DNA of 64,000 nt from Blautia sp. (GTDB lineage: Bacteria; Bacillota; Clostridia; Lachnospirales; Lachnospiraceae): contig JAMPFM010000007.1 in assembly GCA_023664455.1 (NCBI GenBank), positions 13,955 through 77,954 of the forward strand. Reading direction: 5' to 3'. Below are positions 14,974 through 57,798 of this stretch, one piece after another. How positions within the stretch are numbered: the stretch's first letter is position 1; each line of letters starts with the position of its first letter. The position numbers and the translations under genes are program-made. The notes below the pieces were generated by a model. The model ran no database searches. It worked only from the letters and a program-made list of their open reading frames with translations, and was not told the origin of the DNA.

Positions 14974-14996
14974 AAATCTAGAAATTTCCTGTAAAT

Positions 14997-15204
14997 AGGT
15001 AATTGCGAAACTAAGATTTTACAGCCGCCCGTTGTGCAGAATATACAATCCAACGCAGGCACGCTCTCGCTACGGTTCAAACGCAGCGGTACATAAGATG
15101 CCAGAGTACGGCATCTAAGTACCGGCGTTTTCACAGTACCTGCTTATGGAGTTGTATATTCTGTACAACTACATGTTTCTAAACTTCAGTTTCGCAAATT
15201 GCCT
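14997..15204 (+). mobile_element. 208-bp MITE-like palindromic repeat, copy 1
   Basis: TIRs aggtaattgcgaaact / agtttcgcaaattgcct. The 195-bp core differs from the reverse complement of copy 3 at 10 positions. Degenerate 13-bp flanking repeats. No transposase in the window. Confidence 0.75.
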
Positions 15205-15238
15205 ATTTCCTAATAAAATATGAAAGGAAGATGGACGG

Positions 15239-27271: not shown

Positions 27272-28096
27272 ATGAGTCGGCAATCCTACACAATATCTGA
27301 ATTGACCGCAAGAGTCAATCAACTTTACCACAAATCCCAGACCGAAGGTCTGACGGAAGAAGAGAAAAAAGAGCAGGCCGAACTTAGGCGCGCCTACGTT
27401 GCCAATATCCGAAACAATTTAAAAGGACAGCTTAACAATATATCCATTGTGGAACAGGACGGCTCTATTAGCAACGTCGGCGAACGCTATGCCAGAGAGA
27501 AGAAAAAGAAACTGCGCAGTCAGGCATTGTCCGCAAGAGACGCCATGACAGCGGATGACTTGAAAAACAAGAGCGATAAAATCATCCAGACGCTTCTTGC
27601 AATGGACATTTACCGGGAAGCAGAAGCCGTTCTTTCCTATGTAAATTACAAGAGCGAAGTCATTACCGAATCTTTGCTGACACAGGCGCTTATGGATGGA
27701 AAACAGGTTTTCGTGCCCAGAGTGTCCGGGCAGGAAATGGAGTTTTATAAGATTACGGATATGCAAGAACTCTCGCCGGGCTATCAGGGCATCCGGGAGC
27801 CTTTATCCGGGCTGTCTTTTTTCGCTGGGAAAGACAACTTATGCGGGCAGGGCAAAACGCCGCCGCTTATGATTCTTCCTGGCGCCGCTTTTGATGAAGA
27901 GAGACATCGAATCGGCTATGGGCGGGGATATTATGATAAATATTTAACAAAGGCAAAAGAGCTTCAAATCCCGTTTCGCACGGTAGCGCTGTGTTTTGCT
28001 TCTCAGATGGTTCCTGAGATTCCCTGCGAAGCGCATGATATCAGACCGGATGTGCTGCTGACGGAAAATGGGGTGTATGAAGAGAAGAATGCATAA
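27272..28096 (+). CDS. DUF896 (YnzC-like) domain fused to 5-formyltetrahydrofolate cyclo-ligase
   Basis: aa ~5-65 RVNQLYHKSQTEGLTEEEKKEQAELRRAY (DUF896-like); remainder KKKLR...R, SEV.T, GIREP, ILPGAAFD...HRIGYGRGYYDKYL, PCEAHD. Confidence 0.82.
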   Translation: MSRQSYTISELTARVNQLYHKSQTEGLTEEEKKEQAELRRAYVANIRNNLKGQLNNISIVEQDGSISNVGERYAREKKKKLRSQALSARDAMTADDLKNKSDKIIQTLLAMDIYREAEAVLSYVNYKSEVITESLLTQALMDGKQVFVPRVSGQEMEFYKITDMQELSPGYQGIREPLSGLSFFAGKDNLCGQGKTPPLMILPGAAFDEERHRIGYGRGYYDKYLTKAKELQIPFRTVALCFASQMVPEIPCEAHDIRPDVLLTENGVYEEKNA

Positions 28097-28105
28097 GAAC
28101 AGAAT

Positions 28106-28286
28106 CTTAGGTTATTGCAGACGTCCGTTGCGCAGAAGATATAATCCAACGCAGGTCCGCTCTCGCTACGGTTCAAACGCAGCGGTACATAAGATGCCAA
28201 AATACGGCATCTAAGTACCGGCGTTTTCACAGTACCTGCTTATGGATTGTATCTTCTGCACAACTACACATTTCTAAACGTAAATA
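28106..28286 (+). repeat. Copy 2 of the MITE-like repeat (outer TIRs eroded)
   Basis: 28115-28279 aligns to the copy 1/3 core, including the cggtacataagatgcc-N7-ggcatctaagtaccg hairpin; lacks the ttgcgaaact ends. Confidence 0.8.
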
Positions 28287-28313
28287 ATAGGAATAGAAAG
28301 GAAATATAAAGAC

Positions 28314-57500: not shown

Positions 57501-57538
57501 AAGGAACTGACTATCAGATACAGGAAACTTTTGTTTTC

Positions 57539-57746
57539 CAGGCAATTGCGAAACTAAAGTATAGAAACGTGTAGTTGTACAGAATATACAATTCCAAAAG
57601 CAGGTACTGTGAAAACGCCGGTACTTAGATGCCGTATTCTGGCATCTTATGTACCGCTGCGTTTGAACCGTAGCGAGAGCGTGCCTGCGTTGGATTGTAT
57701 ATTCTGTACAACGGACGGCTGCAAAGTCTTAGTTTCGCAAACGACT
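57539..57746 (-). mobile_element. 208-bp MITE-like palindromic repeat, copy 3 (inverted)
   Basis: Perfect 12-bp TIR ttgcgaaactaa/ttagtttcgcaa at 57546-57557 and 57729-57740; flanked by the exact 13-bp direct repeat aacttttgttttc (57526-57538 and 57747-57759). Confidence 0.8.
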
Positions 57747-57798
57747 AACTTTTGTTTTCAAATTGAAAGGAAACCGGATACTAAAGGAAGCAAACATT

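Follow-up and report, generated by a model that had tools for sequence, protein, structure and literature searches.

A palindromic intergenic repeat of Blautia sp. and the conserved core that it has in common with other repeat families of Lachnospiraceae

Three palindromic repeats of about 200 bp lie between housekeeping genes in a 64,000-nucleotide stretch of a Blautia sp. genome (the window; C85:13955-77954), and the locus raises the question of whether such repeats are regulatory RNAs or mobile DNA, and why their centres are so well conserved. A first-pass annotation of the window had taken them for copies of a non-autonomous mobile element. The three stretches are very probably copies of a non-autonomous DNA transposon (MITE), with a core that is common to other MITE families. 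All three copies were recovered at the places and in the orientations at which they had been annotated (Table 1), and Pfam searches bear out the flanking genes named for them, SPOUT methyltransferase (rlmH type) and pyrimidine-nucleoside phosphorylase, cyclo-ligase and proA position, and RluA and RecU.

The 195-nt repeat arms of copies 1 and 3 (15003-15197 and 57546-57740) are 95% complementary with about 10 differences, in agreement with the 195-bp core and 10 differences of the annotation, and both copies measure 208 bp between their flanking direct repeats, the 13-mer of copy 1 being imperfect. Copy 2 is 91-93% identical to the other two across the central 132-139 nt, with ends so eroded that neither terminal repeats nor a duplication is recognisable. 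It is also found at the same locus in a close relative (L075), which makes it the oldest of the three and fits its eroded ends. Copy 1 is predicted to fold as one rod (-86 kcal/mol; z = -9.4 versus shuffles), and its complementary strand folds equally well. According to Pfam, the ORF at 27272-28096 of the window encodes two domains, DUF896 at residues 11-65 and a 5-formyltetrahydrofolate cyclo-ligase at residues 78-265.

Table 1. Features of the window copies, parts of the conserved core, and related or neighbouring repeats of the genome
Feature	Position	Strand	Description
Copy 1, family 1 (putative MITE, 208 bp)	14997-15204	+	Between rlmH-type gene and pyrimidine-nucleoside phosphorylase gene
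Copy 1, terminal inverted repeats			AGGTAATTGCGAAACTAAG / CTTCAGTTTCGCAAATTGCCT
Copy 1, neighbours	14973; 15239		rlmH-type stop; pyrimidine-nucleoside phosphorylase start
Copy 1, target-site duplication (decayed)	14984-14996; 15205-15217		Left ATTTCCTGTAAAT; right ATTTCCTAATAAA; 9/13 bases match
Copy 1, conserved asymmetric core	15055-15143	+	Fold supported by covariation
Copy 1, core parts 5'->3'			Bulge CACGCTCTCGC; helix AAACGC(AG)CGGTAC : GTACCGGCGTTT; small internal loop; variable apical hairpin
Copy 2, family 1	28098-28296	+	nhmmer; core ~28151-28239
Copy 2, neighbours			DUF896/5-FTHF cyclo-ligase gene; aldehyde-dehydrogenase family gene in proA position
Copy 3, family 1 (208 bp)	57539-57746	-	Core ~57600-57688
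Copy 3, neighbours	57500; 57799		End of RluA-type pseudouridine synthase gene; recU ATG
Copy 3, target-site duplication (perfect, 13 bp)	57526-57538; 57747-57759		AACTTTTGTTTTC on + strand, GAAAACAAAAGTT on - strand
Core consensus, part 1 (5'->3')			Inner stem, variable sequence
Core consensus, part 2			5' bulge RCRCGCTYNCGC
Core consensus, part 3			Short covarying helix, TCC/GGA vs TAC/GTA
Core consensus, part 4			G.A mismatch
Core consensus, part 5			4-bp helix, variable sequence
Core consensus, part 6			Nearly invariant helix AAACGC(AG)CGGTAC : GKRCCGGCGTTT, two-base AG bulge
Core consensus, part 7			UA/AA internal loop
Core consensus, part 8			Variable apical hairpin, often AAARKAC loop
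~79-nt module, examples	C33:26778-27072; C70:8339-8614; C38:8532-8792; C17:2506-2780; C19:443989-444259; L086:4480-4640		
~90-bp repeat, copies	C19:458585-458684; C19:391260-391331; C107:33055-33143; C99:1523-1611; C18:6004-6087		

Copy number, families and insertion sites

The genome searched (G000) is a 3.40-Mb MAG of 107 contigs. Blastn and nhmmer searches of the whole MAG detected 138 distinct loci of the repeat superfamily, 90 of them of at least 150 bp, which together make up 0.66% of its length; copy number thus goes far beyond the three copies of the window, and the extrapolation from these to many per genome was justified. Since 31 of the 138 loci abut contig ends, the repeat ranks among the chief reasons for breaks in the assembly, which is of practical concern for short-read assemblies.

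Family 1, to which the window copies belong, has about 40 full-length members with 80-97% identity. They are non-coding imperfect palindromes of 200-210 bp, with a single hairpin over the whole length and terminal inverted repeats of about 20 bp; ORFs that cross them are read-through artefacts. Family 2, with more than 20 full copies, has the same centre as family 1 and entirely different outer arms (CACGGAAATCAATTTTCAGTCAGC...). Other copies combine this centre and an inner arm layer with different outer layers, or have internal deletions; the build is layered, the inner arm layer being common to family 2 and other copies of this genome and the outer layer not. The window stretches belong to one family of a far larger superfamily, whose common feature is a conserved internal core rather than the ends. 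In about ten family-1 copies, an extra two-hairpin module of about 79 nt (AGTGTGAAAAATAAATTTTTCACACGCAAGTTTG...) takes the place of TAAG on the 5' side of the apical hairpin (Table 1), and at one orthologous copy this module is present in the close relative (L086) and absent from this genome (C22).

Family 1 inserts at particular places. Of 27 copies, 22 lie between genes on the same strand, with medians of 18 bp to the upstream stop codon and 37 bp to the next start codon; none lies between convergent genes, and all three window copies match this pattern. In 17 of the 27, the end lies 9-27 nt from a Shine-Dalgarno sequence plus the start codon of an ORF with 80 codons or more, as compared with 13% of random intergenic positions and one of 22 family-2 copies; with this spacing, the duplicated target comes to lie a few bases away from the ribosome-binding site. 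Family 2 is found preferentially in divergent promoter regions, at about 120 bp from the starts of genes. The core in tandem gene pairs is oriented with the genes in 23 cases and against them in 19, and the family-1 copies adjacent to a Shine-Dalgarno sequence are divided 9 to 8. A cis-regulatory leader or riboswitch was rejected on these grounds, because position is biased but orientation is random and the genes are functionally unrelated. The annotation had already argued for mobility rather than a riboswitch from orientations and neighbours, and this argument stands, with the addition that sites are gained and lost between relatives.

Family-1 copies would be co-transcribed with their neighbours, putting a hairpin of about 200 nt into a polycistronic mRNA. 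At many loci, such a hairpin, placed between the cistrons of housekeeping genes and just before a ribosome-binding site, probably has an effect on the processing, stability or translation of the mRNA. The ends of the element carry an outward TTCGCA that is able to pair with a flanking -10-like hexamer (e.g. 15191-15219), and a promoter role of the ends might be imagined; a promoter scan found no more TTCGCA/-10-like sites than in shuffles, and no internal promoter above chance. A search for RNA runs containing the window found none, and 'RNA?' runs for a locus labelled C. symbiosum, with contigs up to 68 kb, were dominated by other repeat copies and uninformative.

Ends, target duplications and mobility

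Similarity among 27 aligned family-1 copies stops exactly at AGGTAATTGCGAAAC.../...GTTTCGCAATTRCCT, with a boundary consensus of AGGTAATT...AATTRCCT. Duplications flanking these boundaries were detected in 15 of 19 copies, with lengths of 12 bp (seven copies), 13 bp (five), 11 bp (two) and 10 bp (one), and in the remaining four there was none. Family 2, with ends CACGGAAATCAATTTTCAGTCAGC, is flanked by 9-bp duplications (e.g. TATCGCCCT and AGTGTCAAA), and a family with the same core in a genome of another genus (G037) has ends GTTACTGTTCACA and 8-bp duplications. Across the families there are three end types, AGGTAATTGCGAAACTAAG, CACGGAAATCAATTTTCAGTCAGC and GTTACTGTTCACAG. Unrelated ends together with different duplication lengths (8, 9 and 10-13 bp) imply different enzymes. 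Family 1 was inserted by staggered cuts 10-13 bp apart, which generate the direct target duplications; a DDE-type transposase supplied in trans would recognise the terminal repeats and make these cuts.

Filled and empty sites can be compared with a close relative, a MAG deposited as "Muribaculaceae bacterium NALB_7961_20", which has 91-98% (mostly 93-96%) DNA identity to G000 over long stretches; at many sites an element is present in only one of the two genomes. Two of these are clean. C33:31948-31959 of G000 is empty, with one TAAATATGATA, and L080 of the relative has an element between two copies of it; conversely, C14:10004-10207 is filled and L014 has a single ATTTAGCGGCAAG. Other differing sites are footprints or have lost internal sequence, in keeping with the instability of palindromes. 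The gap between rlmH and pdp, about 260 bp here, is only 22-64 bp in five congeneric species and thus too short for the element of copy 1. No core was present anywhere in the fetched phosphorylase locus of 76 of 80 related species; a core lies upstream of the gene in only two of the 80 and downstream in two, and these are independent insertions. The clean empty sites in the close relative and in congeners mean that the elements have recently been mobile, being inserted and lost. The annotation's proposal of a mobile non-autonomous element is thereby upheld by consistent duplications, filled and empty sites, and short gaps in congeners; what it had set against mobility, a set of only three copies without empty sites, is not what was found.

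An orthologous element (L009:1440-1620 and C107:21075-21195) has its central core inverted relative to the arms in one of the two genomes, as expected from recombination between inverted arms. Several MAGs of one deposit series (JAMPHJ01: L005, L009, L014 etc.; JAMPFK01: L268; JAMPCN01: L085) bear implausible labels such as 'Muribaculaceae bacterium', 'Bacteroides fragilis' and 'Bacillus sp.'. These MAGs have contigs that match the Lachnospiraceae genome G000 with 91-98% identity or code for close homologues of its genes, and they appear to be mislabelled.

The G037 family bears on which part of the element is needed for movement. In this genome there are about 62 left ends, and twelve near-identical full copies have the ends and 8-bp duplications described above. 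Pairing of left and right ends uncovered core-less derivatives of 61, 73, 95 and 117 bp. Of the 61-, 73- and 95-bp forms there are 2-4 copies each, mostly at separate sites with 8-bp duplications of their own. Their junctions lie at short direct repeats, which identifies them as deletions that kept transposing. The core is therefore dispensable for transposition.

The annotation had also suggested looking for an autonomous IS with matching ends, and here the outcome was negative in this MAG, at 91 foreign loci with the core and in G037, with the reservation that MAGs tend to lose IS copies. In this MAG, neither the ORFs beside half copies nor the long repeats of the genome offered a transposase or another candidate for an autonomous partner. 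Left half-cores lacking a right half, in this genome and at the 91 loci, gave no partner candidate; no neighbouring protein recurs among the 91 loci, and pairing of all left and right ends in G037 gave no autonomous element. The DDE_Tnp_1, Y1_Tnp and IS240-type domains (PF01609, PF01797 and PF13610) have no match in this MAG, and such an absence is weak evidence because MAGs routinely lose IS copies.

Presence and absence of transposase families were therefore compared between 15 high-copy and 15 copy-free genomes, with G000 added for two families. DDE_Tnp_1 is found in 10 of 15 genomes of either group and is not associated with the core; five near-complete genomes with many copies (G139, G152, G022, G029 and G159) lack it, and it occurs in copy-free ones. 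No association was seen for Y1_Tnp (8 of 16 copy-bearing genomes, counting G000, which lacks it, and 11 of 15 copy-free) or for IS240-type transposases (6 of 16 high-copy and 3 of 15 copy-free). Transposase_31 (Rpn/YhgA, PF04754) was detected in 10 of the 15 genomes with many copies and in 4 of the 15 without. A single-copy gene of this kind, encoding an Rpn/YhgA-like PD-(D/E)XK protein, lies outside the window amid family-2 elements (C19:297833-298624, minus strand), with a 78-bp core-less mini family-2 element (C19:~298835-298912) upstream and, past an assembly gap, a family-2 copy downstream. A homologue in G093 (L152:1210-2181) is flanked by two direct segments of about 190 bp, each with a core element. 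Of 28 further PF04754 genes, one has cores nearby, which makes 2 of 29 overall, and Rpn/YhgA is a weak and unproven lead, not a partner.

Two other candidates were discarded. A transposase found beside one of the left ends in G037 belongs to an unrelated IS (L118:~216-2208) inserted into a MITE copy; it is a 591-aa DDE_Tnp_1-type protein, the only match of this domain near a copy, and its IS has TTTGACACCT inverted repeats and is inserted exactly at the start of the core. The likeness of the G037 ends to those of the IS6 family was not supported by the transposase search.

Structure, probable selection and distribution of the core

A scan for exact patterns, with one genome taken for each species, brought out more than 91 core loci, nearly all in Lachnospiraceae MAGs or isolates, labelled Acetatifactor, Butyrivibrio, [Clostridium] symbiosum and others. 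A copy is also carried by the cultured Butyrivibrio sp. AE2015 (L071). The arms of these loci are unrelated in sequence to one another yet self-complementary, and the part in common is about 90 nt long, with a fixed order of bulges, helices and loops (Table 1). Pair counting on 40 diverse copies supports the core fold, 83% of the cells being able to pair as compared with 69% in shuffles and 34-49% in slid registers. Changes on both sides are found in 22 of 35 core pairs, including 25-106 (CG/AU) and 29-102 (GC/UA/AU/CG), and even the 'invariant' AAA/TTT segment of the core is replaced by GCG/GGC in G037.

On the bulge-carrying (core) strand, G.T mismatches in the arms outnumber A.C mismatches by 211 to 142 in other genomes and by 271 to 164 in G000, an excess that is suggestive of selection on one folded strand, the copies being related rather than independent. 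The core is presumably maintained because selection acts on one folded strand, as RNA or as single-stranded DNA, probably since it aids the persistence or spread of the element. Conservation is reversed in comparison with an ordinary MITE, the centre being more conserved than the ends. While MITEs are a known class, the organisation is new in that an apparently strand-selected core is common to families with differing transposition signatures.

A covariance model built from core sequences (R1) was run on 151 Lachnospiraceae genomes and matched 60 of them, corresponding to 59 of 150 genera (about 40%), with from one to at least 24 copies per matching genome. In a class-wide sample of 201 Clostridia genomes there were five matches, all of them in Lachnospiraceae and none in any other family of the sample. 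The superfamily is apparently Lachnospiraceae-wide and undescribed.

One of these genomes, G139, departs from the rest. It has more than 40 copies that are alike only in the core (83-93% identity), with arms that mostly differ from copy to copy and are yet perfectly self-complementary. Many copies have a terminal GGCTGCCGCAT motif flanked by runs of A and T, and no target duplication is visible in this family. Arms that differ and still match call for a process that keeps them complementary, for which template-switch correction of quasi-palindromes is a known candidate. That each arm is an inverted duplication or copy of the target flank was rejected, as the terminal motif is common to the arms. 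The combination of a uniform core with differing but self-complementary arms is not predicted by the ordinary MITE model.

Alternative explanations and known elements

The repeats are small and non-coding, their ends are defined by terminal inverted repeats, and their many dispersed copies are flanked by characteristic duplications and present or absent between relatives, all of which is as expected of MITEs. The core might, however, be a small mobile or self-installing module in its own right, one that settles in the middle of palindromic DNA, such as MITEs and terminator-like hairpins, with the outer families as its hosts. The same core does sit in no fewer than three outer backbones whose ends are unrelated and whose duplications differ in length, the inner arm layer is common where the outer one differs, the 79-nt module comes and goes at the apex of one orthologous copy (L086 versus C22), and in G139 the arms outside the core differ copy by copy. 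Nevertheless, every core-less form found of the same outer element is a deletion, since the minis of G037 and the one of G000 (C19:298835-298912) have junctions at short direct repeats or keep the sequence of one arm. The arms of G139 share GGCTGCCGCAT, which makes them diverged relatives rather than captured target DNA, and the core has neither a duplication nor defined ends of its own. A self-installing core is accordingly improbable. Somewhat less probable still is the idea that the elements are primarily functional structured RNAs, i.e. small RNA genes or cis-regulatory leaders, and that their spread is secondary. Conserved bulges, the internal loop, covarying helices and the excess of G.U-type pairs on one strand would suit such RNAs, as would the position of family-1 copies in probable operon transcripts directly upstream of ribosome-binding sites; their orientation relative to the neighbours is nonetheless random (23:19 overall and 9:8 next to Shine-Dalgarno sequences), the neighbouring genes are functionally unrelated, sites are gained and lost between near-identical genomes, no Rfam family matches, no internal promoter scores above chance, and derivatives without the core persist and spread.

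It is hardly credible that the elements resemble REPINs or PATEs in their mode of movement and travel in single-stranded form with the help of a Y1 (HUH) transposase, be it of RAYT or of IS200/IS605 type. The hairpin shape, the high copy number, the conservation of structure rather than ends and the strand asymmetry do recall REPINs and the subterminal hairpins of IS200/IS605. Such systems, however, make no target duplication, whereas duplications of 8, 9 and 10-13 bp are found here and have been verified against empty sites, and Y1_Tnp is distributed as described above, being absent here and in half of the 16 copy-bearing genomes and present in most copy-free ones.

Within the MITE explanation, the core of about 90 nt might be a functional, strand-specific folded cargo module (RNA or single-stranded DNA) confined to Lachnospiraceae, rather than part of the transposition machinery, and this is put forward only tentatively. 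A cargo core could bind a family-specific factor encoded by the host or the element, for instance aiding spread, protecting long palindromes or modulating neighbouring mRNAs; alternatively, it could be a second-order parasite installing itself in the centres of palindromic DNA. A centre that is conserved across families and yet unneeded for movement points to a protein-RNA or protein-hairpin DNA interaction specific to Lachnospiraceae, which can be tested with the help of the core's covariance model and sequence definition. Lachnospiraceae are among the most abundant bacteria of the gut and rumen, and the superfamily reaches dozens to more than 100 copies per genome.

The annotation did not recognise the repeat as a named family, and the collections agree. 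In Rfam, the window has no match at the gathering score, and E-value mode with copy 1 and four copies from two other genera gave chance-level matches only. Distant blastn searches of plasmid and phage collections and a search of IMG/VR viral contigs with two patterns found no match. No description of this repeat was found in a full-text literature search, and a 2024 review of prokaryotic MITEs mentions neither Clostridia nor Lachnospiraceae (PMC10969869).

The closest counterparts are Correia/NEMIS of Neisseria, ERIC/IRU of enterobacteria, RUP of S. pneumoniae and bcr1 of the B. cereus group, which are likewise high-copy, non-coding elements of 100-250 bp. They share with the present repeats an intergenic location, an imperfectly palindromic and often co-transcribed sequence, terminal inverted repeats, target duplications, insertion in either orientation, and sites that are occupied in some strains and empty in others. 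They differ in being unrelated in sequence, in residing in other host families and in conserving their ends, whereas an internal asymmetric core is common here to families with unrelated ends. The marked preference of family 1 for sites a few bases upstream of a ribosome-binding site also sets it apart, and the duplication made by Correia and RUP is TA, as opposed to the long one of 10-13 bp in family 1.

In the IS4 family, the subgroups IS10/IS50, IS231 and IS4 have duplications in a range that takes in 8, 9 and 10-13 bp, and IS231 of the Bacillus cereus group has non-autonomous cassette derivatives such as MIC231. The terminal sequences found here have, to our knowledge, no resemblance to IS4 or IS231 ends. 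Derivation from the IS4 family is unsupported, PF01609 being absent from G000 as well as from the five high-copy genomes that lack it (G139, G152, G022, G029 and G159) and DDE_Tnp_1 being uncorrelated with the core.

BOX elements of Streptococcus pneumoniae are similar in being modular interspersed repeats with modules in varied arrangements and stable structures within transcripts, the modules here being outer arms, inner arms, core and apical module. The modules of BOX are in tandem (A-B-C), whereas here they are nested palindromic layers, and we know of no consistent target duplications of this kind in BOX. With the REPIN/RAYT system, the likeness lies in hairpin doublets with hundreds of copies in a lineage, and the single-copy nuclease-family gene between elements (C19:297833-298624, and L152 in G093) recalls RAYT among REPINs; REPINs are Y1-dependent and lack target duplications, while here duplications are present, Y1 is uncorrelated and the link to Rpn is weak.

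A separate repeat of about 90 bp occurs outside the window in five copies with 94-98% identity in this genome (Table 1). In the two cases inspected it lies directly upstream of a gene start, where it inflates the ORF with the peptide LRRLFATSRSEMRI.
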